Shown piece by piece: positions 1,544 to 24,790 of a stretch of 32,000 bases of DNA. The notes below the pieces were generated by a model that saw nothing but the letters and a program-made list of their open reading frames with translations, was not told the origin of the DNA and made no database searches. The translations under genes and the position numbers were made by a program. Every line of letters begins with the position of its first letter. Within the stretch, counting starts at the first letter, position 1. The stretch is from Candidatus Saccharimonadota bacterium (lineage in GTDB: Bacteria; Patescibacteriota; Saccharimonadia; Saccharimonadales; Saccharimonadaceae), in contig CP011211.1 in NCBI GenBank assembly GCA_001029695.1, positions 60,001-92,000 on the forward strand. Direction: 5' to 3'.

Positions 1544-1700
1544 GCTAACGACATGAGTATCCATATTCAGTCGAAGGGACTGTATAGACGAAGCACAATT
1601 GCCCATTTACCTACTTCACTAAGGAGCGCCTATAGGTTGCCAGCCACATATTACTAAGAGGTAGTGAGTGGGCTGACGAGCTTACTTTCTATCCGACGAT

Positions 1701-1753
1701 GCCCTCATCATTATCCGCCGTACGGTGTAGATATAGATGAGGGCTATTTTATT
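1701..1753 (+). terminator. rho-independent terminator
   Basis: GCCCTCATC (1701-1709) pairs with GATGAGGGC (1736-1744). It is followed by TATTTTATT. Confidence 0.55.
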
Positions 1754-1755
1754 GG

Positions 1756-2727
1756 CTATTCTTTTTCCCAAATAGCGAGTGAAGCTATTTTATCAAGTCG
1801 TACTGAGAAAAAGCATTGAAGTTCGTCGTTAAAGAGAATGACGCATGGATTGCCTTTGGTGTATAAAAAATCATCACTCGATGTGTATTTATGGAATTCA
1901 TCTCGACGATCTACGAAACAAATGCCTCTATAGACGCCTGAGACACTATTTTCAAGCTGGAGCATATCATTTGGTGGCATGTAACTGGTATCGATTGAAA
2001 AGTCTTGCTCGACAGGCTGCACGAAGCAGTCGTCTGTGGTAACGGACAGTATATGCTGGGTATTTATGTCGTGGTGCGCAAGGAGCGTTTCGAGGTGCTT
2101 ACATTGCTCGTCTAGCCACTCATCTTGACGGTAGGCTGGCGCAGAGAGGAATAGTTGACTAGACAGGAGCTTGACGGTTTTTGCTGACTCCTCATTAAGT
2201 AGTTCTTTCATATAAATGTCTTCTACTTCATATGTGGTAAGCGCGAGGATACTTTCGACTGGCATGATGTAGTTTGCTACTGCGGTATCTTTCTCGTGGA
2301 TAGGCTTATTGAAAGAAAGGGCCACTGTCCAGGTTCGTCCAACCTCGCCGCCATCTTCTAGTTGGTAAAGTCCTACTGCCTGGAGTGTTAGCTCGTCATT
2401 TGCAAGAGCCTGCTCTGAGTTTTCGAGTATTTCTCCGTCGTAGCCTTCTTTATGAGCAAAACCAGTAACCCCGATGCGCTGACCTATATACCCCTCACCT
2501 AGCGACTGTTCAAGCAGATGCTCTTGTTCTTTGAGTATCCTGGAGAGTTCTTCTATTGGGCCGTCAAAATTATTGAGAGTTTCAATTGCTGTTGACTGAG
2601 CAAGGATGAAACTGCTAGAAGAGACTGGATAAAGATCGCTTTGATTCCAGTTGTCGTCGAATTGTGATGGCTGTTCCATATTAAGCAAATTTTGCCGTAT
2701 TATGAAAGAATTTGCAAGCAAGAGCAT
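1756..2727 (-). CDS. hypothetical acidic cytoplasmic protein (paralog of 4291..5307); likely start at ATG 2679 (MEQPSQFDD...)
   Basis: Long ORF with no signal peptide or TM segment. The C-terminal half aligns by eye with the 4291..5307 product: QCKHLETLLAHHDINTQHILSVTTDDCFVQPVEQD vs QHKDAILDLFTAHLGVTYEKTFTVNVEDGLMRQPGED, SVSGVYRG vs TVSGIAFA, and PCVILFNDE..C vs LCLAVINEYEGADC. Confidence 0.7.
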   Translation of the reverse strand: MLLLANSFIIRQNLLNMEQPSQFDDNWNQSDLYPVSSSSFILAQSTAIETLNNFDGPIEELSRILKEQEHLLEQSLGEGYIGQRIGVTGFAHKEGYDGEILENSEQALANDELTLQAVGLYQLEDGGEVGRTWTVALSFNKPIHEKDTAVANYIMPVESILALTTYEVEDIYMKELLNEESAKTVKLLSSQLFLSAPAYRQDEWLDEQCKHLETLLAHHDINTQHILSVTTDDCFVQPVEQDFSIDTSYMPPNDMLQLENSVSGVYRGICFVDRRDEFHKYTSSDDFLYTKGNPCVILFNDELQCFFSVRLDKIASLAIWEKE

Positions 2728-2794
2728 TTAGTCTTGAGGTGTTGGCGGAAGACTAGTCAATAAATGAAGGGCTATGATATAATAAACGAGCTAT

Positions 2795-2869
2795 TGGGGC
2801 GTCGCCAAGTGGTAAGGCATCAGTTTTTGGTGCTGACATTCGGGGGTTCGAATCCCTCCGCCCCAGCCA
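2795..2869 (+). tRNA. tRNA-Gln (anticodon UUG), CCA encoded
   Basis: Hand-folded cloverleaf. The acceptor stem TGGGGCG pairs with CGCCCCA. D-stem is GCC/GGC and the anticodon stem is TCAGT/GCTGA. The anticodon loop TTTTGGT gives anticodon TTG. T-arm is GGGGG-TTCGAAT-CCCTC. U1-A72 and G73 are typical of bacterial tRNA-Gln. A 3' CCA is present. Confidence 0.9.
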
Positions 2870-2877
2870 AGAAAAAA

Positions 2878-2912
2878 GTCTTAGATCTTCTGATCTGGGA
2901 CTTTTTTCTTTT
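2878..2912 (+). terminator. rho-independent terminator after tRNA-Gln
   Basis: GTCTTAGATC (2878-2887) pairs with GATCTGGGAC (2892-2901) across loop TTCT, with two G-U pairs. It is followed by TTTTTTCTTTT. Confidence 0.7.
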
Positions 2913-2962
2913 GAGTATTTCTAGCTAAGACATTAAGGTGTGCTTATGCTAGACTACGTAGT

Positions 2963-3238
2963 ATGAACACAATGGTACGCAGGTTTTTATATATATTCGC
3001 GTTGGAGCTTATTCTGGCTGCGCTACTTGCTTGGAGTAGCTTACAAGACAATTTTAATGGTATTTGGATTTTTATTGTTTCATTTCTCGGGCTTCTTATC
3101 GTGTTCCCGATTGTCCTTATTATGAATATAAGAGCAATCAAAGCGACACATAGTACGTATCTTTATATACCGCTGTGCGTGAATATATTGCCTCCTGCTG
3201 CGTTTATCGTCTATAGCTTCTTCCGCAGTATTAGCTGA
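2963..3238 (+). CDS. small hypothetical membrane protein (about 3 TM segments)
   Basis: The 91-aa ORF is rich in hydrophobic stretches (FLYIFALELILAALLAW, IWIFIVSFLGLLIVFPIVLIM, LPPAAFIVYSFF). An extended -10 TGcTAGACT (2947-2955) lies 7 nt before the ATG. Confidence 0.5.
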   Translation: MNTMVRRFLYIFALELILAALLAWSSLQDNFNGIWIFIVSFLGLLIVFPIVLIMNIRAIKATHSTYLYIPLCVNILPPAAFIVYSFFRSIS

Positions 3239-3491
3239 GTGATATATTTAAGCCTTAACTCTACGCGCTAGGCGGTGTGTGGGGTGCTGTGGAGAGTAAT
3301 CATCCCTACTCTTCGTGCAGGTAATCTTGCGTATGGTATAAAGATATGTGAATGTATGTAGTAAGATCCACTACGTATATTTCATTGATTATAAAACGCA
3401 GGTTGACAGAGAGTAGCTATATGAATATCACAAAAAACACACCTTATACTAAGGTGTGTGGCAGTCTAATCTTAACTTGCCATAGAAAAAT

Positions 3492-3593: not shown

Positions 3594-4241
<648 letters not shown>

Positions 4242-11638: not shown

Positions 11639-11675
11639 TGCTATAATGTTACAGTGTTAAACACTGTAACATTAT
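11639..11675 (+). promoter_or_regulatory. extended -10 promoter overlapped by a perfect 33-bp palindromic operator
   Basis: TGcTATAAT is at 11639-11647. The palindrome spans 11643-11675: ATAATGTTACAGTGTT-A-AACACTGTAACATTAT, with 16-nt arms and a 1-nt centre. SD GGAGGA and ATG 11694 follow. Confidence 0.7.
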
Positions 11676-12468: not shown

Positions 12469-13125
12469 TCAGTCAATTTTTCGTAGAGTATCGATGCTCG
12501 AAAAGATCTCATTGATACTTAGCCGTGCATGGTTTAATCCATCTCCGGCATAGTAGCTTTGCTGCGGGTTATCGCCTATAGCTTTTGGGAGCGCGGCCCA
12601 CTCTTTCGACAGGTTGTGAGCGAATTCTTCACGGCTAAGTTTAGTGTCAATATATTCTCGCAGACCTCTTCGCTCTAGTAATGCGACGGCGAGCTTGTCT
12701 TGGAGCGGTTTGTCAAATATAGCGTTTTGGTCAATTTTTAATTGAGTGACTAGACCGCGAAGCGTAGAGTCTACGAACTGATATCGTCCAACTGCACTAC
12801 TTGCATTTCCCTTTGCTACGAAATCATCTTGCCATGCGAGGACATCTTTTATCGGCATGGATGTAAATAAAATCTGTGAGTTGCTTGCGTTACCAAAATA
12901 CGCATTGTAGTTGTCGTTACTTTCTACTTTTGCGATAGTTGCGAGTAAGTCCGCGGTATATATATTCTTATTATCATTCACCTTTATAAGTATAAACGAA
13001 AAGACAATGACCATGACGGCAAGCGCTGATATGCTTTTTGGCGAAGCAAGAGATTTACGAATATAGCGCCCGTATGTTTTTATGCGGCGAATCAGTGTTT
13101 TGTGTTGTTTATACTTGCGGGTCAC
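12469..13125 (-). CDS. membrane-anchored lysozyme-like / lytic-transglycosylase-like protein
   Basis: The basic N-terminus is followed by a TM segment (ISALAVMVIVFSFILI). The ectodomain has KVESNDNYNAYFG (candidate catalytic Glu), SSAVGRYQFVDSTLRGLV and LQDKLAVALLERRG, which resembles the Lysozyme_like (PF13702-type) pattern. GTG start with TATAAT 8 nt upstream. Confidence 0.55.
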   Translation of the reverse strand: MTRKYKQHKTLIRRIKTYGRYIRKSLASPKSISALAVMVIVFSFILIKVNDNKNIYTADLLATIAKVESNDNYNAYFGNASNSQILFTSMPIKDVLAWQDDFVAKGNASSAVGRYQFVDSTLRGLVTQLKIDQNAIFDKPLQDKLAVALLERRGLREYIDTKLSREEFAHNLSKEWAALPKAIGDNPQQSYYAGDGLNHARLSINEIFSSIDTLRKID

Positions 13126-13170: not shown

Positions 13171-15255
13171 CTATATAAGAATCCCTAGGCTTGCGAGTAA
13201 TCTACGGACACATTCAATGAGCTGTAGGAGCCAGCTATTGGTTGTTGGCGGCTGAACGGGAGGTGTGACGTATTTAGCAAGTATGGTAGTACCTGGATTG
13301 CCTAGTTCATTTTTTGATGTAACACCAGTAATGCTTAGCTCGACATCAAGAGTTCGATCGACATCTGTTAGATCGAGTGATGTTCTATTGCCTGTGACGT
13401 AGCCAATTTCAACGCCATTTACTGCGATTATCCATTTGGTTGCAAACGTGTCTGCAGGTGTCCAGTTTAATGTAATCGTACTCTTTTGATCTTTAGTTGA
13501 TATGACGTTCGCTGTGATGTTTGTTGGAGCTTTTGGTGTTTGCGGTAGCTCTTTTGTGCCTATTTTCACAAATGCTGAGGCGTTTGCGACAGTACCGTTG
13601 GATGCTGTGAGTCGAACTTGCATAGTGCCATCAAGATTTGCGCTGTATGTGTGGCTGACGATTGGAGTTGTCGTAGTGTACTCAAATGTGCCATCACCAT
13701 TTATATCCCATTCGTATTTAGTGATAGTCGCGTCGACAACATATGAATCCGAAGCGTCATAAGTAACTTCTTTTCCTGGCTCGGCGGAGTATTCAGTGTT
13801 TTTCAGAAGTGCTGTCGGTCTTGTTTCGATTTTACTAAGTGCTTGTGTGAGTGCCGCGACGGTATCGCCAGTATCGATGATCACTTGTCCGGTTGTTTTG
13901 CTTGCGAGCTCATGGTACTGCAGGGTGACTCCTGAGGGTACGACGGGATATACGTTAACTGGATCGATCTCGAGTGAGCGTTTTGCAACACTTTCGACTG
14001 TTGAGCCATCGACACGATCGGGCTGATGAAACCCAGCATCCGTGAGTACGATTGCCGCCTTTGTGGCGCCGTCTTTCCATGCTAGTCCGTCAAATGTTGT
14101 TTTGAGTGCATGAAGGGTTGCTTCGGGCGTATCGCCTCCTCCATCTATAGAGACGGCATCCAATTTTGCGAGTAGCTCAGCAGTGTCACTTTGGAGGCCG
14201 GAGAGGACTTGCGCTGTATAAGCATCTCCACTGTCTCTGTATACGGTAAGTGAGACACGTCCATTGAGTTCTTTAATCTTTTGAGCGGAGTTACGGATAA
14301 ACGTTTTTGCTTGAGTGATTCGGCTACCCATTGAACCTGTCGTATCAAGGACAAACGCGACGTCGAGACCTGTCGTACCAAGTCCTGGCTTTGGCACGCC
14401 CGTATCGATGCCGCTGCCTTGGTCTACCGGAAGACTACCTTTGACTTTTTGAGCAATCTCAATAGCTGCTTTGTCTATAGCGCCACCTTCTCGTTTGTAC
14501 TTACCGTGGCCGGCGGTATCGTAGAGGAATTTTGACGTGCCGCAGACAAAGTCAACTGCGTTACACCATAATCCAGTTTTGCTTGCCATGGCGGTTGGAA
14601 GATAAGGCTTTCGTGCACCGAGCGATCCATTATCAGCATGGCAGTCGCCGATTGTTCGCCGCCAAGACGAAAGGTTTTTGCCACGACAGGCATCTGGATA
14701 AACCCCTTCACCCTCGGGAAGATGTAGCTTTGGGTCGCCGAAGAGCGCAGTAAAGTCAATCTTGTTCTGTATAGTGGACGAGAGCTTCGGAAGTGTCTGG
14801 CCTACTACTTGTGCGCCTTGTGAGTAACCCCCGAGTACGATACGGGCATTGGGGCATTTTTTGTTGCGCTGCTCAAGATAACTGTAGAGCTCTCCGACAC
14901 CAGAATCAACGCTTCTTCCGTAGTCAAACGCGTAACCGGAGGAGGCGGCGGCACCGATAGGATTGCCGTTGAGGGCATTGTCTACATCGATGGCTTGGTA
15001 CTTATGTCCACCGTAAGTTTCGGTTCCGAGTTCATAGTAATGTTTCTCTGTTGGACTTTTAATCCTACCTTCTACTTTTGCTCGAAATCGCTCGGCTTCA
15101 CTTGCCTTTAGGTCTTGTCCAGATCCACGTACGAACACGATCTCTACTTGACTACAGTTATCGTTTACGTTGAGCGCAGATGTACTTTGAGAAGCGCTTA
15201 CTATTAATATGAAAGTGGTGATTATTGATATAAAGATTAACTTAGCTATCTTCAT
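13171..15255 (-). CDS. exported multidomain protein: cutinase-like esterase + vWA (MIDAS) + PKD-like + Fn3-like domains, hydrophobic C-terminus
   Basis: Signal peptide MKIAKLIFISIITTFILIVSASQSTSA. Cutinase motifs VEIVFVRGSGQ, GGYSQGAQV and WCNAVDFVCGT...AGHG. vWA MIDAS motifs DVAFVLDTTGSMGS, GGGDTPE and VLTDAGFH. PKD-like YEWDINGDGTFEYTTT...HTYS. Fn3-like PTNITANVIS...LNWTP. Hydrophobic tail LLASLGILI. Confidence 0.8.
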   Translation of the reverse strand: MKIAKLIFISIITTFILIVSASQSTSALNVNDNCSQVEIVFVRGSGQDLKASEAERFRAKVEGRIKSPTEKHYYELGTETYGGHKYQAIDVDNALNGNPIGAAASSGYAFDYGRSVDSGVGELYSYLEQRNKKCPNARIVLGGYSQGAQVVGQTLPKLSSTIQNKIDFTALFGDPKLHLPEGEGVYPDACRGKNLSSWRRTIGDCHADNGSLGARKPYLPTAMASKTGLWCNAVDFVCGTSKFLYDTAGHGKYKREGGAIDKAAIEIAQKVKGSLPVDQGSGIDTGVPKPGLGTTGLDVAFVLDTTGSMGSRITQAKTFIRNSAQKIKELNGRVSLTVYRDSGDAYTAQVLSGLQSDTAELLAKLDAVSIDGGGDTPEATLHALKTTFDGLAWKDGATKAAIVLTDAGFHQPDRVDGSTVESVAKRSLEIDPVNVYPVVPSGVTLQYHELASKTTGQVIIDTGDTVAALTQALSKIETRPTALLKNTEYSAEPGKEVTYDASDSYVVDATITKYEWDINGDGTFEYTTTTPIVSHTYSANLDGTMQVRLTASNGTVANASAFVKIGTKELPQTPKAPTNITANVISTKDQKSTITLNWTPADTFATKWIIAVNGVEIGYVTGNRTSLDLTDVDRTLDVELSITGVTSKNELGNPGTTILAKYVTPPVQPPTTNSWLLQLIECVRRLLASLGILI

Positions 15256-15266
15256 AGTCGTACTTC

Positions 15267-15749
15267 CTATCTCTCTATATTTAGAATCATAGTTGATTTT
15301 TCATTGTTGTATTTAGAGTAGTTTAAGGTGATTCTGTAGCTATTTAGTGTTGCACTAGCTTCGCATATTTTTAAGCTACTTTCGTTAGTGTTGCCGAGTG
15401 TACAGTTGTCATTGCTAATCTTCATGTTTTTATTATCTAATTGTGCAAATGACTGAAACTCTTTCTGAGTTGATATTTCTTTTTCTAGTTGCCATACTTT
15501 TCTTAATTCATCGCAGTCGGCCTGTAGACAGACGTTGCGTGCAGGATTGATTGTTTCGCTCTCCAGCACCCATTCAGAGCTGGCTTTAAACTGCTTTGCG
15601 GTCTCCTCTAGCTTCGTTGTACTACCAGGTATAAAGCCCCATAAAGTGATGACAATTGTCGCTACTACTAAAATACCAACCGCAACTCCAATCCCTTTGA
15701 GCAAGTTGAGCAACCTACTCTTTTTTGTTGATTCTTGTATGTTTGTCAC
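15267..15749 (-). CDS. single-pass membrane protein, Cys-containing ectodomain, hypothetical (first gene of operon with 13171..15255)
   Basis: TM segment GIGVAVGILVVATIVITLWGF. GTG start preceded by SD GGGGAGGA. An 11-nt gap separates it from the downstream gene. Confidence 0.6.
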   Translation of the reverse strand: MTNIQESTKKSRLLNLLKGIGVAVGILVVATIVITLWGFIPGSTTKLEETAKQFKASSEWVLESETINPARNVCLQADCDELRKVWQLEKEISTQKEFQSFAQLDNKNMKISNDNCTLGNTNESSLKICEASATLNSYRITLNYSKYNNEKSTMILNIER

Positions 15750-15907
15750 CCTGTCCTCCCCACCTAGATTTCAGTAATTAATCAGCATTATAGTCCACTA
15801 TACGGGCATTCGTCAACGTTTTGATGAGTGTTTGCAAATACAAAGGATGTAACTACGAGATTTGAGCTATAGGGGTGTGGTATGGTCTTTTCGTAGCGGT
15901 GGCAAAG

Positions 15908-15946
15908 TGATATAGTGTCTTCTACTAGAGAATCATCGCTCTGGGA
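15908..15946 (+). promoter_or_regulatory. cassette 1 promoter (extended -10 TGaTATAGT) plus conserved leader element GCTCTGGGA
   Basis: TGaTATAGT is at 15908-15916. GCTCTGGGA at 15938-15946 starts 21 nt after the -10 box. A small AGAG/CTCT hairpin is present. Confidence 0.5.
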
Positions 15947-15981
15947 TGTCACATCACCTACTTTCTTTGAGGAGGAAGGTA

Positions 15982-16446
15982 ATGCACTGCGACGTAGTGT
16001 TGACGCAAAGGTACCTTGATCAATTTCAGGAAGTAATCTGTCGATGGGAGATCATCAGCGCTAAGGAATACGAGAGATTTGCGAGAGTGTGGGTTCGGTT
16101 TCTTTACTGTGTTACTGATTATGATGCAGATGTGCCGAGTATCGCTGCTCTTCGTGACTTGGCTTGGATCGACTATAGTGCCCAGCGTATGATAGGACTA
16201 GGTCATAGCCAATGGTCGAGCGCTTTCGAGAACTCACTGCCGATATATAAGGAGCCGAATATCAACGCTTTCTTTATCGGTGAAATGAGGAGCCGTCACG
16301 ATTATATTTCTGAACTCAGAAGCAGTCTTCATCGTGAATACGTTCGAGCTGTGTTTGAGTTTCAGATGGGTAGATATGATGTGTCTATTCAGATAATCAA
16401 AGCGCAGCTCGCACGACTGGAAGTTGTGTACAGCGATGTACTCTAG
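15982..16446 (+). CDS. hypothetical ~150-aa protein, tandem cassette member 1 (alternative start 15946)
   Basis: SD GAGGAGGAAGG lies directly upstream of ATG 15982. No signal peptide or TM segment. The C-terminal motif REYVRAVFEFQMGRYDVSIQII is shared loosely with members 2 and 3. Confidence 0.6.
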   Translation: MHCDVVLTQRYLDQFQEVICRWEIISAKEYERFARVWVRFLYCVTDYDADVPSIAALRDLAWIDYSAQRMIGLGHSQWSSAFENSLPIYKEPNINAFFIGEMRSRHDYISELRSSLHREYVRAVFEFQMGRYDVSIQIIKAQLARLEVVYSDVL

Positions 16447-16449
16447 CGT

Positions 16450-16505
16450 ATCCCGCACCTCTAGCGAAAAAAAGATTTCGCTAGAGGTGCGGGATCTTTT
16501 TATTT
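16450..16505 (+). terminator. rho-independent terminator (20-bp perfect stem)
   Basis: ATCCCGCACCTCTAGCGAAA (16450-16469) pairs with TTTCGCTAGAGGTGCGGGAT (16476-16495). It is followed by CTTTTTATTT. Confidence 0.85.
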
Positions 16506-16517
16506 ATTGCTATTTCA

Positions 16518-16556
16518 TGTTATAATATACTTTAACCAATGAGCGTAGCTCTTGGA
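16518..16556 (+). promoter_or_regulatory. cassette 2 promoter (extended -10 TGtTATAAT) plus conserved leader element GCTCTTGGA
   Basis: TGtTATAAT is at 16518-16526. GCTCTTGGA at 16548-16556 starts 21 nt after the -10 box. A GAGC-gta-GCTC hairpin is present. Confidence 0.5.
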
Positions 16557-16604
16557 GTACATGCAAGTGACTGTCCGTACACTGTTCGATGTTTGGAGGA
16601 TGCT

Positions 16605-17048
16605 GTGTCTGATAAATCAGAAGCGTTGCGCCATTACAGAGGATCTTGGAGGATATTTCATGATTGGAGAAAGACTTGCTTTGCTGTGTATCAAACAAAA
16701 ATCGAAGAATGGGAAGCCTGCGCATACGATGCACTAGCACGGAATAGCGGACCTTCACAAGATTGGCTACAGGAAGCCATTCGGGTGGGCTATTTTAGTC
16801 AGTGGATGCCCCAGGTATTGTACCTCGTTTGGCCTGAGGAGGACGAAATCTTCTTTCGTAGCCTCACGTGTATCCATGACGCAGAGCATATCGAGTCAAT
16901 TCTCACGTTTCATAAGTCACGGCTGGAGATCGACGAGAAGATCCACGGTGAGTTTCGTAGAGTCGCACGTGCGATTGATGACGGTGACTACACAGCGACT
17001 GTTTCTCTTGCGCTCATGAAGACTGACACGCTCAGTGTGAGAATCTAG
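16605..17048 (+). CDS. hypothetical ~150-aa protein, tandem cassette member 2 (alternative start ATG 16539)
   Basis: GTG 16605 is preceded by SD GGAGGA (16595-16600), parallel to members 1 and 3. The longer ORF from 16539 would include the conserved leader element. C-terminal motif is GEFRRVARAIDDGDYTATVSLAL. Confidence 0.55.
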   Translation: MSDKSEALRHYRGSWRIFHDWRKTCFAVYQTKIEEWEACAYDALARNSGPSQDWLQEAIRVGYFSQWMPQVLYLVWPEEDEIFFRSLTCIHDAEHIESILTFHKSRLEIDEKIHGEFRRVARAIDDGDYTATVSLALMKTDTLSVRI

Positions 17049-17056
17049 TCTGACCA

Positions 17057-17110
17057 CCTCGTGCTTCTAGTGAATAGTATTTTACTAGAAGCACGAGGTT
17101 TTTTAATTTT
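17057..17110 (+). terminator. rho-independent terminator (15-bp perfect stem)
   Basis: CCTCGTGCTTCTAGT (17057-17071) pairs with ACTAGAAGCACGAGG (17084-17098). It is followed by TTTTTTAATTTTT. Confidence 0.85.
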
Positions 17111-17128
17111 TGTTATATTAAGTATTTA

Positions 17129-17166
17129 TGGTATAATATACATTAACCAGAGACACGCTCTTTGGA
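17129..17166 (+). promoter_or_regulatory. cassette 3 promoter (extended -10 TGgTATAAT) plus conserved leader element GCTCTTTGGA
   Basis: TGgTATAAT is at 17129-17137. GCTCTTTGGA at 17157-17166 starts 19 nt after the -10 box. An AGAG-acacg-CTCT hairpin is present. The sequence TATAATATACATTAACCAG aligns with cassette 2 TATAATATACTTTAACCAA. Confidence 0.5.
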
Positions 17167-17214
17167 AGCCCTTACTCAATGCCTATTGGTCACCGGTTGA
17201 AACAGGAGATTGCT

Positions 17215-17673
17215 ATGACATGTATGGAATCGATCGATGAGTTAATCTATCGTCTCGAACGTTTACTCGAAGTGTTCCATGAAAAAGCCCGTATGTCGTA
17301 TAGTTTGTTAGCTTCGCAATGCGAGGCATCGCATAAGCTACGAACGGCATGCAATTTTCGGCAATATGCGCATATGAAAGCTGAGTTGAAGGAAGATTCA
17401 TCTCAATGCTGCAGTTTGTTCCTTCAAGTGGTCGAATCATTTGGTTCGCCGTTTGATGTTGTATTGGATGAGCGGATCGATGCGCTGGATATATCATCAC
17501 AGATTCGTATGGATCTTGATGTACTGCGATCCACTAACGATGAATACATGAAGACAGTAGCACTGTATCGTGATGCGATCCGTAACGCTAATCTTGATGT
17601 TGCTTTCGGCAATGATGTTACTCCTAGGTGTGATCTCTCGAAGAGGATAGCATTTCTTGGAATGTTGACGTAA
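17215..17673 (+). CDS. hypothetical ~150-aa protein, tandem cassette member 3 (alternative start 17179)
   Basis: SD AGGAG lies 6 nt upstream of ATG 17215. No signal peptide or TM segment. C-terminal motif is DEYMKTVALYRDAIRNANLDVAF. Confidence 0.6.
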   Translation: MTCMESIDELIYRLERLLEVFHEKARMSYSLLASQCEASHKLRTACNFRQYAHMKAELKEDSSQCCSLFLQVVESFGSPFDVVLDERIDALDISSQIRMDLDVLRSTNDEYMKTVALYRDAIRNANLDVAFGNDVTPRCDLSKRIAFLGMLT

Positions 17674-17701
17674 GACAGCGCTTCCCCGCCCCTACTAGCA
17701 A

Positions 17702-17735
17702 ATACCCCGCTAGAGGAGCGGGGTATTTTATTTAT
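17702..17735 (+). terminator. rho-independent terminator
   Basis: ATACCCCGCT pairs with AGCGGGGTAT across loop AGAGG. It is followed by TTTATTTAT. Confidence 0.75.
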
Positions 17736-17747
17736 CGATGCACTTTT

Positions 17748-18176
17748 CTACTTCTTGATCTCTACTTTGAATGATTCTAGTGGTTCATCGATAGGAGTAC
17801 GGTGCGCAACCTCCTGGTCGATTTTATACTGAATGTAGTTGACAAGGCTGGCAAATGCCCATGCAAGGAGAAGATACATCACAACGGCAAAAAGTGCAGC
17901 AACGTCGAGGTAGCCGGTTTCGCCAATAGTACGCGGCGGGAAAATACCACGAAATGGTGCAAGATAGTCCGCTGATGTACGGTAGACAAATTCAACAAAC
18001 GGCGTGGCGACATTTGCTGAGAACATAAGAAGAACAACTCGGATAGTGAGCAGAACGATGCCGATAAATACCCACGCATACATGATGTAAGCGATGATTT
18101 TACTGACGCGAAGATAGCTTGGAATTTCAATAGTATCTGTTTTAACATTTGCAGCTTGCTGTCTAGTGTTTTTCAT
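17748..18176 (-). CDS. YggT-like integral membrane protein
   Basis: Two TM segments. The block YLAPFRGIFPPRTIGETGYLDVAALFAVVMYLLL resembles the YggT signature (P.R..P..G.D.S). SD AAAGGAG is present. Confidence 0.5.
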   Translation of the reverse strand: MKNTRQQAANVKTDTIEIPSYLRVSKIIAYIMYAWVFIGIVLLTIRVVLLMFSANVATPFVEFVYRTSADYLAPFRGIFPPRTIGETGYLDVAALFAVVMYLLLAWAFASLVNYIQYKIDQEVAHRTPIDEPLESFKVEIKK

Positions 18177-19779: not shown

Positions 19780-19862
19780 ACTACTTACTATGAGCCGATA
19801 TGTAGCTGTTTGCAGTGAATACTTTTTCACTACGAAAGGAGCTTGTCGACTATAATAGATAC

Positions 19863-22172
19863 ATGACTGATCTTCTCGACATATTACGTAGAAACTTTAT
19901 TACTCCAATTGTTATCGCAATTCTATCGCTCGCATTGATACTCCTGATTCTTGGTGAAGGTCGAGATGCATGGTTTATATCGGTAGTTATCGTGCTCAAT
20001 ACTGTTTTTGCCGTCGTCCAGGAGATTCGCGCGCAACGAGCATTGAAGAAACTGGAGCTTATGAGTGCGCCTCGAGCACGTAAGCAGCTTGAAGATGGAA
20101 CTTTTGTTGAAGTGATGTACGATCAGCTTATTGCGGGTGACGTGATTCAACTACAGTCTGGTGATGAGATACCAGCAGATGCGACACTTGAAGCTAGTCA
20201 CGGACTCGAAGTGGATGAAAGTATGCTTACTGGTGAGTCAGCTGCTGTCGAGAAGCACGTAAAAGATACGGTCTTTGCAGCGAGTGCAGTCGTAGCTGGA
20301 ACTGCGCGTGCAGTAGTGATAGCGGTTGGAACCGATAGTAAAGCTGGTGTAATGACTGCGCAGCTCAAGCGCTACAAACCAGAGCTTACTCCCCTCCAGC
20401 GAAATATCAATCTCGCGATCACGATCCTTACCTATGGCGCTCTTGGCTTGGCGCTATTGATAGGTATCGCCTACTCACTTATGGGTGAAGATCTAGTGCG
20501 AACATTTAAGGCAATCACTGCGGGTGCTACGACGGTCATACCGGAAGGTCTTTTGCTTGCGAGTACACTTTTGCTTGCCTTTGGCTCGCTCAAATTAGCT
20601 GCCGCTAAAGTACTGCCGCAGAAGCTTTCAGCTATCGAAGCGATGGCGCTTTTAAACGTACTGTGCGTCGACAAGACGGGTACGCTGACAAGTCCTGATG
20701 TGAAGTTTGAGCGCTTTGTATGGTTTGGTGAGGAGGATCAAGATACCCTACCTCTCGTAGGTATCGTGGCGCGCGAGACGAGTGCAGGAAACTCGACCGG
20801 TGATGCGTTGATTGCTGCATTGCCTCAAGAAGATGAGTATGACGCAAAAGAGATTCTTGCATTTAGTTCACAACGAAAGCTGAGTGGCGTGCGAGTAAAA
20901 TATAGAGGATCTATACAGACGGTTTTGATGGGCGCACCAGAGTTTCTTGGTAAACTTGCTTCGCTGACCCATGCGCAAAAAAAGCAGGTACAAGAGCTCG
21001 CAGCGAGCGGCAACCGAATTTTGCTCGTGGCCTCATTTGATGATCATAAGACGAAGTTGAAGGAGCTTGCGGATAAGTCTGGTACTGTATTGGGACTTTT
21101 GGTACTGAGTAATGAGCTGCGTGATGGCGTCGTGGAGACAGTAAAATACCTGCAAGGTCAGGGCGTAAGCATGCGAGTAATTAGTGGTGATAACCCAGCG
21201 ACGGTGAGCTATGTGGCGACGCGAGCGGGAATCGAAAATCCTGGCAAAATAATAACAGGAGCCGAACTTGAGGCATTGCCAGAGGATAAGTGGGCGTCTA
21301 CCGTTAGAGATACGACTATATTTGCGCGTGTACTCCCTGAGCAAAAAGAGAGATTAATTGCGACATTTAAGAAACAGCATAAGTTTACAGGTATGGTCGG
21401 TGATGGCGTCAATGATGCACTTGCCTTAAAAAAAGCAGATCTTGGCGTAGCCATGTATGCTGGTGCAGCAGCTAGTCGACGCGTAGCTGACATAGTGCTT
21501 CTCAATAATTCATTCACCTCATTGCCAATGGGCATGAAGCTTGGTAATCGAATTATGCAGGCTATTGAAGTGATATCGATCCTCTTCTTTCATAAAATTA
21601 TTTATGGAGTGGTGCTTTTGGTGGCGACACTTGCTGTCGGGCTCACCTATCCGTTCGAGCCTCGGCATGTGACGTTTATGAATATGTTCCTCGTAACGAT
21701 GCCGACGATTATGTGGACGTTGTTTCCTCCATCCCCGAATCATCGTATCAACCCACGTAAATTCTGGCAGGACACACTTCGTCCGGTGGCACCGATTGCA
21801 ATACTGTCGGGTCTTGGTGTTGCGTTTATCTACTCATATCTTCTTTTGCAGCACCCTGGTGATCGTGCGGGTGTCGCCACGACGACAGTGATCGTCGCGA
21901 CGTTCTTTGGAGTGTATTTGGTGTTCCTCGCTTCTCGTATACTCAACGTTACATATGACCGAACGGCTAAATTGGCTCGAATACTCTACCTTCTCGCCGT
22001 TATCTTTGTGGCGAGTGTTAGTCTTGGGTTTGGTTTTTCGCGCGATTTCTTCGACTTTACGAGCCCGAACTGGCAGAATAGTTGGCCAGCACTTCTACTC
22101 ATCGCGAATATAGTAGCAATTCAGTGGTGGCTCGCTCAGCGAGCATCGAAAAAGCTCAAGAAGCGAATATAG
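19863..22172 (+). CDS. P-type cation-transporting ATPase (type II-like, short N-terminus)
   Basis: Motifs TGESAAVEK, phosphorylation site CVDKTGTLT, VISGDNP and GDGVNDALALKKADLG, plus about 10 TM segments. TATAAT (19851-19856) lies 6 nt before ATG 19863, so the track GTG 19815 is unlikely. Confidence 0.9.
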   Translation: MTDLLDILRRNFITPIVIAILSLALILLILGEGRDAWFISVVIVLNTVFAVVQEIRAQRALKKLELMSAPRARKQLEDGTFVEVMYDQLIAGDVIQLQSGDEIPADATLEASHGLEVDESMLTGESAAVEKHVKDTVFAASAVVAGTARAVVIAVGTDSKAGVMTAQLKRYKPELTPLQRNINLAITILTYGALGLALLIGIAYSLMGEDLVRTFKAITAGATTVIPEGLLLASTLLLAFGSLKLAAAKVLPQKLSAIEAMALLNVLCVDKTGTLTSPDVKFERFVWFGEEDQDTLPLVGIVARETSAGNSTGDALIAALPQEDEYDAKEILAFSSQRKLSGVRVKYRGSIQTVLMGAPEFLGKLASLTHAQKKQVQELAASGNRILLVASFDDHKTKLKELADKSGTVLGLLVLSNELRDGVVETVKYLQGQGVSMRVISGDNPATVSYVATRAGIENPGKIITGAELEALPEDKWASTVRDTTIFARVLPEQKERLIATFKKQHKFTGMVGDGVNDALALKKADLGVAMYAGAAASRRVADIVLLNNSFTSLPMGMKLGNRIMQAIEVISILFFHKIIYGVVLLVATLAVGLTYPFEPRHVTFMNMFLVTMPTIMWTLFPPSPNHRINPRKFWQDTLRPVAPIAILSGLGVAFIYSYLLLQHPGDRAGVATTTVIVATFFGVYLVFLASRILNVTYDRTAKLARILYLLAVIFVASVSLGFGFSRDFFDFTSPNWQNSWPALLLIANIVAIQWWLAQRASKKLKKRI

Positions 22173-22191: not shown

Positions 22192-24723
22192 TTACTGTAC
22201 GGCGATAGTTCGACGAAGGTGGTAACGTCCGACAAGTTTGTGTGATTCAACAATGATGATTGGGACGATAAATGCAATCACTCCTGTGAGCATAAGGTCA
22301 CCGATGAGGACAGTATGTATATGAAGGAGGCTCTGAAGCGGTCCAAAGATGGCGAGCATTTGGAGTCCAACTGCAATTGCAAGCCCGGCATAAAATTTAC
22401 CATTCCACACACGGAGACGGCTAAACATAGACTCGTAATCGCTGCGAGCGTTAAAGGCGTTTGACCACTGCATAACTACGAGCGCACAGAATGCGATTGT
22501 GTTTGCGTACTCGTGGCCTTCGAGTGCATTGTAGTAAATGTACATACCGAGGACAGTAGCAGCCATACTGAGAGCGACAAGTATCATTCGCGTAATAATG
22601 TACTTACTGAGAATAGGCGCGTTTGGGCGTTTCGGCTTTTCGTCCATAATGTTTTTTTCGCCAGGCTCAAGGCCAAGTGGAATCACCATGGAGGTGTCGG
22701 TAACGAGGTTAATCCAAAGGATCTGTACAGGCATAAGCGGAAGTGGAATCCCGATGATTAATGCTCCCATCATAGTGAGTGCTTCACCTGCATTTGTTGC
22801 GAGTAAGTAGTATAGCATGCGTCGCACATTTGTAATGATAGTACGACCTTCTCGCATAGCATCGATAATTGACTTGAAGTTGTCGTCTAGGAGAATTATG
22901 TCGCCGGCGTCTTTTGCGATTTGAGAGCCACTCCCCATTGCTACTCCCACGTGTGCATTGGCGAGCGCAGGGACATCGTTGACTCCATCTCCAGTCATTG
23001 CTGTGATGTTATGTTTTTTGAGAATTTCAAGGATACGATATTTGTGTTCTGGGATAACGCGAGAGAATACCCGAACGTCCTTTATTGCATCGCCAAGTTC
23101 TTTATCACTCATGACAGCCATACGACGGCTATCGAAAACCTGCGATCGATGAGATACCATGCCAAGCTGGCGAGCGATATGATACGCAGTTTCAAGGTGA
23201 TCTCCAGTGATCATTCGTACGGTTACTCCGGCGTGAAGTGCGGCAGCAATTGCTTTTTTTGCCTCTGGACGAAGAACATCAGCGACGGCGATGAAGCCAA
23301 CAAAGGTAAAGATAGTCTTTTTCGGTAGATCTTCGAAGCGTTCGATCGGCTTCTGGATTTCAGCTTCAGCAAACGCAATGACGCGGTAGCCCTGGGAGGT
23401 CAGTTTATGAAGTGCTGCGGTTGCCTCTTCGCGCTCAGACTCGGTAAGGTTACTGTGATGAAGGATCTGCTCAGGCGCACCTTTAATTGCAACACTCAAG
23501 CCGTCTCCTTGCTTCCAGACATTCCCGCTCATTGCCATGGCTTGGTCAAACGGTAAGCTTGCTACTTGATGGTGAGTAAGAGCTGGAAGCTTATGGTCGG
23601 TGACATACTCGATCAGCGCAGAGTCGAGAGGGTCATGTGTCTTATGACTACCTTGATTAATAGTTTTTTGTACGTGAAGCGCAATGTCGTCACTACTACT
23701 TGCGGGCTGCCATGTTTCTTGAGCGGTTAGTTTGTTTTTTGTGAGCGTGCCCGTCTTGTCTGTAGCAATTGTCGTGAGGGCACCTACGGTCTCGATAGCA
23801 CGCATATTACGCACAAGCGCTTTTCGGGCTGCCATGCGCCTCATGCCGAGCACGAGCACGACTGAAATTGCCACAGGAAGACTTTCAGGTACAGCACTGA
23901 CGGATAGTGCCATGACAAACTTCAAGCTCTCAGCTATCTCCATGCCGCGGAGCATGGATAGCGCAAACGCGACAACCGCCATTGCACCTACGACGGCAAT
24001 AATTTGGCTTATCAATTTATCTATTTTCTTCTGGACAGGACTTTCAGTAACAGTAGTACCTGTCAGGGCTGCAAGCTGCCCGAACTGCGTATTGTTTCCT
24101 GTGTGGACAATGATAGCTTTTGCTTCACCCGAGACGACAAATGACCCTTGGAAGAGCATGTTGCTTTGTTCGTAGATCTCTTTCTCTCCTGTCAGAGCCT
24201 CGACCTGTTTTGAGATCGGCTGTGATTCACCCGTAAGGAGTGCCTCATCAGTGCGAACACTTTTAGCTTCTATTAGACGTGCATCGGCAGGGACTTTTTC
24301 GCCTTCACTGAGTGTGATGATATCTCCCGGGACGAGATCTTCTGACTGGACAGTGATGTTTTTTCCTTCACGAAGCGTCTCTACAAGCTGCGTCGAGTGT
24401 CTCTGGAGCGAACGAAGTATTCTCTCGGTTGAGAATCGCTGTACGTAGTAGATGACACCATTTGCGATCATGATCACTCCCACTATAACCGCATCAAGGA
24501 TGTCGCCATGAATGACACTGATGACGGCCGCTATGAAGAGGACAAGCATGAAGATATTTGCAAATGGTTCAATCAACTTCTTCCAAAGAGGCTCACCAGT
24601 AACCTTGATAACATTTGCACCATGGAGTCGGCGTCGTTCTTCTACCTCAATTGTCGAAAGCCCGTGTTCTGTTGCTGATAAGTCTTGGAGTGTTGCGTGA
24701 ACATTTTTGTTGTAATAAAGCAT
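22192..24723 (-). CDS. P-type cation-transporting ATPase (Ca2+/SERCA-PMCA-like type II)
   Basis: Motifs TGESQPISK, DKTGTLTKNKL, MITGDHLETA, TGDGVNDVPALANAHVG and PVQILWINLVTD. TACAAT (24736-24731) lies 7 nt upstream of ATG 24723 (MLYYNKNVHATLQDL...). Confidence 0.9.
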   Translation of the reverse strand: MLYYNKNVHATLQDLSATEHGLSTIEVEERRRLHGANVIKVTGEPLWKKLIEPFANIFMLVLFIAAVISVIHGDILDAVIVGVIMIANGVIYYVQRFSTERILRSLQRHSTQLVETLREGKNITVQSEDLVPGDIITLSEGEKVPADARLIEAKSVRTDEALLTGESQPISKQVEALTGEKEIYEQSNMLFQGSFVVSGEAKAIIVHTGNNTQFGQLAALTGTTVTESPVQKKIDKLISQIIAVVGAMAVVAFALSMLRGMEIAESLKFVMALSVSAVPESLPVAISVVLVLGMRRMAARKALVRNMRAIETVGALTTIATDKTGTLTKNKLTAQETWQPASSSDDIALHVQKTINQGSHKTHDPLDSALIEYVTDHKLPALTHHQVASLPFDQAMAMSGNVWKQGDGLSVAIKGAPEQILHHSNLTESEREEATAALHKLTSQGYRVIAFAEAEIQKPIERFEDLPKKTIFTFVGFIAVADVLRPEAKKAIAAALHAGVTVRMITGDHLETAYHIARQLGMVSHRSQVFDSRRMAVMSDKELGDAIKDVRVFSRVIPEHKYRILEILKKHNITAMTGDGVNDVPALANAHVGVAMGSGSQIAKDAGDIILLDDNFKSIIDAMREGRTIITNVRRMLYYLLATNAGEALTMMGALIIGIPLPLMPVQILWINLVTDTSMVIPLGLEPGEKNIMDEKPKRPNAPILSKYIITRMILVALSMAATVLGMYIYYNALEGHEYANTIAFCALVVMQWSNAFNARSDYESMFSRLRVWNGKFYAGLAIAVGLQMLAIFGPLQSLLHIHTVLIGDLMLTGVIAFIVPIIIVESHKLVGRYHLRRTIAVQ

Positions 24724-24790
24724 TAGTACTATTGTAACAAACCTCCTGATGATCAGCTGCATACTTAGCAGGTCTTTTAACTACGAAGAT

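Follow-up and report, generated by a model that had tools for sequence, protein, structure and literature searches.

Three consecutive transcription units, each predicted to be monocistronic, occupy positions 15908-17735 on the + strand of a 32,000-nt stretch of DNA (the window) from an uncultured species of Candidatus Saccharibacteria, which belongs to the Candidate Phyla Radiation (CPR) and has a genome of about 1.04 Mb. Each unit, here called a cassette, opens with an extended -10 promoter and a 5′-terminal leader hairpin, continues with a strong Shine-Dalgarno (SD) sequence and an open reading frame (ORF) of about 150 codons, and ends in a long intrinsic terminator; all of these were found exactly where an initial annotation of this DNA had placed them, and we regard this anatomy with high confidence. 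The three non-coding frames are homologous to each other, whereas the encoded proteins (P1, P2 and P3) show no significant similarity, and within the species coding segments have very probably been replaced by divergent alleles. A common origin of the three units is probable. The overall explanation that we put forward, with about even confidence, is that the cassettes carry orphan genes duplicated long ago, on which balancing or diversifying selection acts and which probably encode conflict or specificity proteins; a conflict-type function as such, in an immunity, inhibitor or specificity role, is proposed tentatively. The elements of the cassettes are listed below in order, with minimum free energy (MFE) structures, folding energies (dG) and evolutionary rates (dN and dS, nonsynonymous and synonymous substitutions per site; pN and pS, the corresponding proportions) where they apply.

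15908-15916, + strand: extended -10 promoter of cassette 1, TGATATAGT, kept in all loci
15925-15944, + strand: leader hairpin of cassette 1, CUAGAG/CUCUGG, 6 bp, in both the MFE and the centroid structure
15982-16446, + strand: P1 ORF, 154 amino acids (aa), with GAGGAGG at 15969-15975; dN/dS 0.15-0.5
16450-16495, + strand: terminator T1, a perfect 20-bp stem with CTAG core, then a T-run; dG -38.4, z -9.7
16518-16526, + strand: extended -10 promoter of cassette 2, TGTTATAAT, inside a 62-nt block homologous to cassette 3
16536-16555, + strand: leader hairpin of cassette 2, CCAA(U)GAGC/GCUCUUGG, from structure prediction
16605-17048, + strand: P2 ORF, 147 aa, SD-led, with a GTG start 5 nt after GGAGG
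16726-17045, + strand: polymorphic tract of P2, two allele classes with sharp boundaries, mosaics of three modules; pS 0.27, pN 0.14
17056-17099, + strand: terminator T2, a 19-bp stem with CTAG core, then a T-run; dG -32.3, z -9.6
17110-17137, + strand: promoter of cassette 3, TTGTTA, a 16-nt spacer and TGGTATAAT, with the -10 box at 17129-17137
17147-17165, + strand: leader hairpin of cassette 3, CCAGAGA/UCUUUGG, 7 bp, from structure prediction
17169-17693, + strand: segment replaced by the P3b allele in two conspecific loci (L098 and L103), covering the distal leader, SD sequence, coding sequence and part of the left terminator arm
17215-17673, + strand: P3 ORF (allele class a, P3a), 152 aa, with AGGAGA in front; an alternative start at M4 (17224) is possible
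17684-17728, + strand: terminator T3, either a long imperfect stem (17684-17723) homologous to T1 and T2 or a perfect 12-bp stem (17700-17728), then a T-run; dG -24, z -4.0

Likeness among the frames was found both behind and in front of the genes. The three predicted terminators have the features of rho-independent termination (a GC-rich stem-loop and T-run after the stop codon, with compensatory stem change) and, with one exception, are the longest terminator-like stems in the window, a 14-bp stem at 24834-24799 exceeding the 12 bp of T3. The stem of T3 reaches 14 bp in its long form, and the homologous long stem is its minimum-energy fold. Compared with shuffled sequences, T1 and T3 aligned at z=13.9, T1 and T2 at z=6.4, and T2 and T3 at z=4.6, and CTAG is kept in both arms of all three. 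Six pairs differ on both sides between T1 and T2, one differs on one side and none is broken, which argues that T2 is homologous too and extends the initial annotation, where only the resemblance of T1 and T3 had been noted. The perfect 20-bp version of T1 occurs in the window and in L003; in most strains (L001, L004 and others) T1 (16456-16483) has one G-G mismatch and two G.U pairs.

At the other end of the transcripts, the GCTCT..GGA element closes a 5′-proximal hairpin in all three leaders, with the general build C(C/U)A..GAG / CUC..UGG and starting some 2 nt downstream of the predicted 5′ end; the cassette 3 hairpin of L103 has A-U in place of a G.U pair, which keeps the pairing. The promoter-leader alignment of cassettes 2 and 3, also claimed earlier, stood up well: their upstream regions scored 25.5, the highest among 190 upstream-region pairs in the window (mean 8.8, sd 2.0; z=8.2), the 18-mer TATAATATACWTTAACCA was seen twice against 0.02 expected, and the intergenic modules at 16447-16604 and 17049-17214 align end to end.

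The behaviour of the cassettes within the species was read from about 20 conspecific loci from independent metagenomes, and all loci that extend over the whole stretch have the three cassettes in the same order with the same neighbours. Flanking genes are 96-100% identical at the amino acid level across these loci (dS 0.07-0.21, dN/dS 0.01-0.15). In cassette 3, L098 and L103 carry a different allele, P3b, a 151-aa protein with 28-30% amino acid identity to P3 and saturated dS that is nevertheless a clear homologue (BLASTP E=7e-17, 29% identity, ungapped). The replaced segment is bounded by breakpoints at 17168/17169 and about 17693, and the surrounding frame (promoter, 5′ hairpin and right terminator part) is 92-100% identical to that of P3a. 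Within class P3b, dN/dS is 0.20, indicating purifying selection, and in National Center for Biotechnology Information (NCBI) genomes P3b likewise adjoins P2 and P1 (MBH1956354-6). Class P3a is almost invariant, with 0 synonymous changes as against a pS of about 0.05 in the next gene (YggT-like), which suggests a recent sweep or spread of the segment; P3a and its flanks (17049-17760) are almost free of synonymous or non-coding variation across many strains.

The polymorphic tract of P2 comprises its C-terminal two thirds and differs between classes at a dN/dS of 0.46, whereas the classes are 100% identical in the terminator and over the first 196 nt shown. Transitions in both directions abound among the differences in the tract (A>G 15, G>A 11, C>T 10, T>C 8), and paired -2/+2 indels keep the reading frame. 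Allele classes recur in many samples, and their combinations across tracts are shuffled among loci, which points to frequent recombination and to tracts that are not co-inherited as one unit. Thus, as had been proposed, the coding parts diversify far faster than the frames, and compensatory evolution together with near-invariance in the population shows the frames to be more constrained than the proteins.

Where the ORFs begin and end, similarity between cassettes breaks off abruptly. Their coding DNA is no more alike than codon-shuffled controls, and the C-terminal pattern that the initial annotation had assigned to all three proteins was traced in P1 and P2 only, without significance (BLASTP E=0.14, hhalign E=0.1), with nothing for P3. 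When P1 and P2 are aligned globally and collinearly, their score lies above that of 98.5-100% of circular and reversed permutations; the other two pairs, P1-P3 and P2-P3, are weaker, and the result hints at common descent without proving it. These observations bear on an alternative in which unrelated ORFs, independently acquired or arisen de novo, each captured a copy of the same promoter-leader and terminator module through gene conversion or illegitimate recombination, so that the frames alone would be homologous. The abrupt ORF borders and the lack of significant coding or protein similarity are as such capture would leave them, and the codon adaptation of P1-P3 is weak (0.02-0.10 vs 0.17-0.38 for neighbours), as expected of young or foreign genes. 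However, the three ORFs are alike in size and in soluble, acidic character, the low-confidence models of P1 and P3 are both helical, and the collinear score of P1 and P2 also speaks against capture. Moreover, P3a and P3b are true homologues that have fallen to 29% identity within a frame still about 95% identical, which makes duplication and divergence of P1, P2 and P3 plausible. We therefore regard duplication followed by divergence as probable and module capture by unrelated ORFs as unlikely.

P1-P3 are real coding genes by several measures: codon usage favours the annotated frame over the five others, if weakly, dN/dS is 0.15-0.5 where measurable (P1 has 9 synonymous changes in 95 sites vs 6 nonsynonymous in 364), and indels in P2 preserve the frame. 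Database gene calls are often longer, at 166 aa for P1 (ATG 15946), 169 aa for P2 (ATG 16539) and 164 aa for P3, from upstream ATGs that lack an SD sequence. The 12-codon extension of P3 has collected three substitutions in each of two variants whose bodies are almost unchanged, which indicates that it is not coding, and since the alignment of P3b to P3 also begins at M4, SD-led starts are preferred. In four loci (L006, L096, L097 and L100) the SD-led ATG of P1 (15982) is ACG with the ORF intact, and L006, the only one of the four with the spacer read, has a G>A change in the spacer before this start; in these strains P1 may be translated from the upstream ATG at 15946, or only poorly.

The earlier statement that the proteins lack signal peptides and transmembrane (TM) segments was confirmed for P1-P3 with either possible start. 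Their maximum 19-aa hydropathy (0.7-1.3 vs 2.4-2.6 for neighbouring signal and TM controls) indicates soluble proteins, and they are mildly acidic (pI 5.1-5.6). Single-sequence AlphaFold2 models were all-helical and of low confidence (mean pLDDT 47.8 for P1 and 36.7 for P3), unusable for fold comparison, which leaves Foldseek uninformative: the best E for the P1 model was 1.7, and several FCD-domain matches serve as a lead only. Residues C89, H91, D92, H95, H103 and H114 of P2 (16869-16946) are invariant across both allele classes, suggesting a possible metal site; their motif is also the source of a spurious database match of P2, to the repeat protein P0005. P1 has two His (H106 and H117) at a spacing matching P2.

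Searches for relatives agreed with the initial annotation in recognising no known family. P1-P3 and P3b had no Pfam or NCBIfam match at E<=1, P1-P3 had none in PHROG or PADLOC (where neighbours matched only at E>=0.001), and sequence and profile searches of PDB gave only noise at E>0.003; a PRDM9 zinc-finger match in PDB was set aside, as it falls in the 5′ extension of P2 that is probably not translated. In word-indexed searches of 5.8 billion proteins, the only matches were conspecific clusters at 75-99% identity, and the same searches missed P3b. With P2, a full HMMER scan over 1.84 billion representatives found its own cluster and one 1399-aa repeat protein (P0005), which is matched at an 11-fold repeated short motif, W.ED..C.HDA.H.E, and is judged spurious. 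IMG/VR scans showed no relatives of P1-P3, and Rfam matched only a tRNA in the window. Scanning metagenomes with the 18-mer promoter/leader pattern gave 80 single chance matches, none related, the pattern being too short for the collection. A scan of Genome Taxonomy Database (GTDB) genomes with the neighbouring P-type ATPase reached two distant Saccharibacteria, its nearest GTDB relatives (58-63% identity), with neither synteny nor homologues. Thus, P1-P3 appear to be without detectable relatives outside one species-level clade. The genes themselves are already public as 'hypothetical protein [Candidatus Saccharibacteria bacterium]' (for example AKM79957-9, UW38_C0001G0088-90, on a 1,038,683-bp contig), and a literature search under the accession numbers found nothing on them; as far as these searches show, the homology of the frames and the replacement of allele classes are undescribed.

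Directly upstream of the cassettes lies a further variable region, outside them and on the opposite strand, together with the two genes that it spans:

15000-15700, - strand: hypervariable tract, covering the ectodomain of the 160-aa protein and the first ~100 aa of the cutinase-VWA-PKD protein
15267-15749, - strand: membrane-anchored 160-aa protein with four Cys (up160)
13171-15255, - strand: secreted cutinase-VWA-PKD protein with a signal-like N-terminus

The tract at 15000-15700 has at least four allele classes at 48-64% amino acid identity with saturated dS, in flanks that are 96-100% identical, and is the strongest diversity hotspot of the locus. Linkage of up160 alleles with those of P2 or P3, as co-evolving partners would have it, was not seen. 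L098 and L103 have a ribosomal-protection-type ABC-F gene (at 1660-3334 of either locus) just upstream of cassette 1, inserted at a point corresponding to about 15810-15860 of the window (NCBIfam NF000355, 400.7 bits vs a cutoff of 380); both of these strains carry P3b, and L103 is without the cutinase and 160-aa genes. In front of the ABC-F gene are a TGCTATAAT promoter, a leader ORF of six codons (MRTNII*) and, ahead of the SD sequence, a terminator-like hairpin, an arrangement that looks like an antibiotic-responsive attenuator. Elsewhere in the window, two convergent P-type ATPase genes, at 19815-22172 (+) and 22192-24762 (-), have 3′ ends 20 nt apart, and a cluster of envelope-active proteins of actinobacterial flavour (407-1543, 3615-4241, 12469-13125 and 13171-15255; at least one secreted) comprises a PE-PPE-type hydrolase, an Rpf-like transglycosylase with LysM, an endolysin-like protein and the cutinase-VWA-PKD protein. 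An episymbiont could plausibly use these against a host from the actinobacteria, possibly one that contains mycolate.

A number of results weigh against anciently duplicated genes under balancing or diversifying selection. On the side of the frames, the upstream region of cassette 1 does not align significantly with those of cassettes 2 and 3 (z 0.3-0.6), and the promoters, transcription start sites and terminators are themselves predictions. Furthermore, TGNTATAAT is the general promoter form of this genome (6 sites vs 1.3 expected) and also serves the tRNA, a YfbU gene and the endolysin-like gene, and two other promoters of this type likewise have a hairpin directly after the -10 box; with both features present at unrelated genes, part of the similarity of the frames is a genome-wide house style. 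Hairpins at transcript 5′ ends, or operators, may be a general feature of this genome. The two unrelated extended -10 promoters with a hairpin immediately behind lie at 11639-11670 and 13142-13100 (- strand); the hairpin at the YfbU-gene promoter is the perfect palindrome GTTACAGTGTTAAACACTGTAAC, and that of the endolysin-like gene is ATACTTG..CAAGTAT. On the side of the proteins, no profile-profile link joins P1, P2 and P3, even with a profile of P3a and P3b, and in view of the unusable models (pLDDT 48 and 37) the paralogy of the ORFs is unproven. The window holds no toxin, secretion-system, defence or phage gene that could serve as a partner. Finally, cassette copy number is constant at three, dN/dS above 1 was found in none of the measurable cassette comparisons, where values are raised over those of the neighbours without amounting to positive selection, and a sister lineage could have supplied the divergent alleles as neutral imports.

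The last three points are also the substance of a neutral alternative, in which P1-P3 are ordinary hypothetical genes, specific to the lineage and without a part in conflict, the alleles came from a sister lineage and the raised dN/dS reflects relaxed constraint. The ordinary, transition-rich substitution spectrum of P2 fits this account, and CPR genomes are rich in hypothetical proteins in any case. It fares less well with the three to four separate hyper-divergent tracts (the N-terminal region of up160/cutinase, P2 and P3) found within 3 kb while 10 kb of flanks are 96-100% identical, or with classes that occur in many samples in shuffled combinations, each under purifying selection. In addition, no donor lineage with these genes was found among the 5.8 billion proteins, and overall we consider neutrality somewhat unlikely. 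The initial annotation had read the array as regulatory DNA retained around rapidly diversifying coding sequence, for which it looked to variable copy number and dN/dS above 1 and named fixed copy number and ordinary purifying selection as grounds against it. The evolutionary part of this reading is largely right, in that homologous frames with compensatory pairs enclose dissimilar coding DNA and alleles are exchanged within them, but neither copy-number variation nor dN/dS above 1 was borne out, and these two results count against it.

Under the explanation by duplication and selection, one ancestral transcription unit would have given rise to three by tandem duplication, after which the proteins would have drifted past sequence recognition, with purifying selection preserving the frames, as the compensatory changes in the stems indicate. 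Hairpins at both ends of the mRNA would stabilise the transcripts, and the strong terminators would insulate the units, giving high and independent expression. The conserved frames could then act as anchors for homologous recombination by which whole coding segments are swapped between strains; natural transformation is known in this phylum. Old allele classes, kept or re-imported at two of the three cassettes and persisting in a young genomic background, would reflect balancing or frequency-dependent selection, and this persistence makes it most likely that the proteins bind a fast-evolving partner or neutralise it, in a conflict between epibiont and host, between strains or with phage, and not in housekeeping. 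The clustering of bounded hyper-divergent tracts beside surface or secreted envelope-active proteins favours an immunity, inhibitor or specificity role, and a function in immunity, anti-defence or host interaction can reasonably be inferred from the population pattern.

The same envelope-directed surroundings, with secreted and surface proteins aimed at the cell envelope, could instead suit effectors delivered into the host bacterium by a contact-dependent, Sec-signal-free route and evolving with host targets. That the genes are orphans with polymorphic alleles would fit such effectors, and Saccharibacteria keep type IV secretion homologues that are hypothesised to move effectors (PMC7427843). 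However, neither the window nor the fetched loci contain a secretion-system gene, P1-P3 have no recognisable signal, and the small-protein array that does lie beside Saccharibacteria type IV secretion genes has N-terminal signal peptides, unlike P1-P3; delivery as effectors is thus very unlikely.

The self-contained build of the units, each with its own promoter and terminator, also recalls a mobile cassette array, whether an integron, phage morons or the target of a diversity-generating retroelement. Against this, the window has no integrase, reverse transcriptase or phage structural gene, IMG/VR holds no relatives, the stems followed by T-runs read as classical terminators, and the cassettes occupy the same chromosomal place in all strains, so that we judge mobility exceedingly unlikely. 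The candidates of this kind were also rejected individually: for an integron, Pfam scans of all large ORFs in the window gave no integrase, a promoter in every unit argues against promoterless cassettes, and the 3′ stems have the form of perfect, GC-rich hairpins with a CTAG core and a T-run, although no scan was made for the RYYYAAC/GTTRRRY cores of attC sites; for a retroelement target, the substitutions in P2 are not adenine-specific; and for a phage moron or prophage cargo, relatives in PHROG and IMG/VR are lacking and the neighbours are chromosomal. A known anti-phage defence system was likewise set aside, given the empty PADLOC result for P1-P3. As to a polymorphic-toxin immunity array, neither an Imm/SMI1-type family for P1-P3 or P3b nor a toxin domain among the neighbours was found.

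Several known systems share part of this organisation. Divergent orphan immunity genes form arrays beside polymorphic-toxin, bacteriocin or contact-dependent-inhibition loci, and like the cassettes they are tandem genes for small cytoplasmic proteins of similar size, mutually unalignable, with alleles replaced from strain to strain between conserved recombining flanks; the cassettes differ in having no toxin gene, secretion apparatus or known Imm family, a promoter and terminator for every gene, and a fixed copy number. Pherotype or specificity loci such as Bacillus comQXP and Staphylococcus agrBDC show the same sharply bounded hyper-divergent segments with saturated dS in near-identical flanks, in few classes each under purifying selection. 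Here, by comparison, there is no kinase, peptide precursor or processing enzyme, and the up160, P2 and P3 tracts are unlinked, which argues against one co-evolving receptor-ligand set. A phage moron, a gene bracketed by its own promoter and factor-independent terminator, is a similarly self-contained unit of promoter, single ORF and hairpin terminator, whereas the cassettes have no prophage context, no PHROG or IMG/VR relatives and a fixed chromosomal position. The mRNAs with ompA, ermC and aprE leaders are stabilised by 5′-terminal stem-loops and 3′ hairpins, and the cassette transcripts would resemble them in having a hairpin that begins at most about 2 nt from the 5′ end and a 3′ stem of great stability, although their ends are predicted from sequence alone; similar hairpins at unrelated genes make this probably a general expression style of the genome and not specific to the cassettes. 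Within the phylum, McLean et al. 2020 (PMC7427843) described an array of four to six small hypothetical proteins beside type IV secretion homologues, which adjoins VirB4/VirB6 and encodes proteins with N-terminal Sec signal peptides. Both arrays are tandem sets of small proteins of no known family, thought to mediate host-bacterium interaction, but P1-P3 lack the signal peptide and the type IV secretion neighbour.

In an otherwise near-clonal background, several ancient and sharply bounded allele classes come together at this locus, in a surface protein, in the tip of the secreted, cutinase-like enzyme and in two of the three cytoplasmic orphans. Attachment to host bacteria is the way of life of Saccharibacteria and other CPR bacteria, and to our knowledge the CPR genes that set host or strain specificity are largely unknown; here, a locus with the population signature of conflict or specificity genes supplies concrete candidates along with allele swaps made by nature. 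The cassettes also illustrate neatly how regulatory DNA can outlast the recognisable identity of its protein. If the proteins are ordinary, they would be three more CPR hypothetical proteins with tidy expression signals. A bolder and improbable extension is that the frames are standardised 'sockets' of a CPR-specific system, at which members of a hidden superfamily of hyper-divergent, helical proteins of about 150 aa are swapped, the allele setting compatibility with host bacterium, rival strain or phage; if true, ultra-small episymbionts would possess a module for specificity or immunity that is of a new kind.

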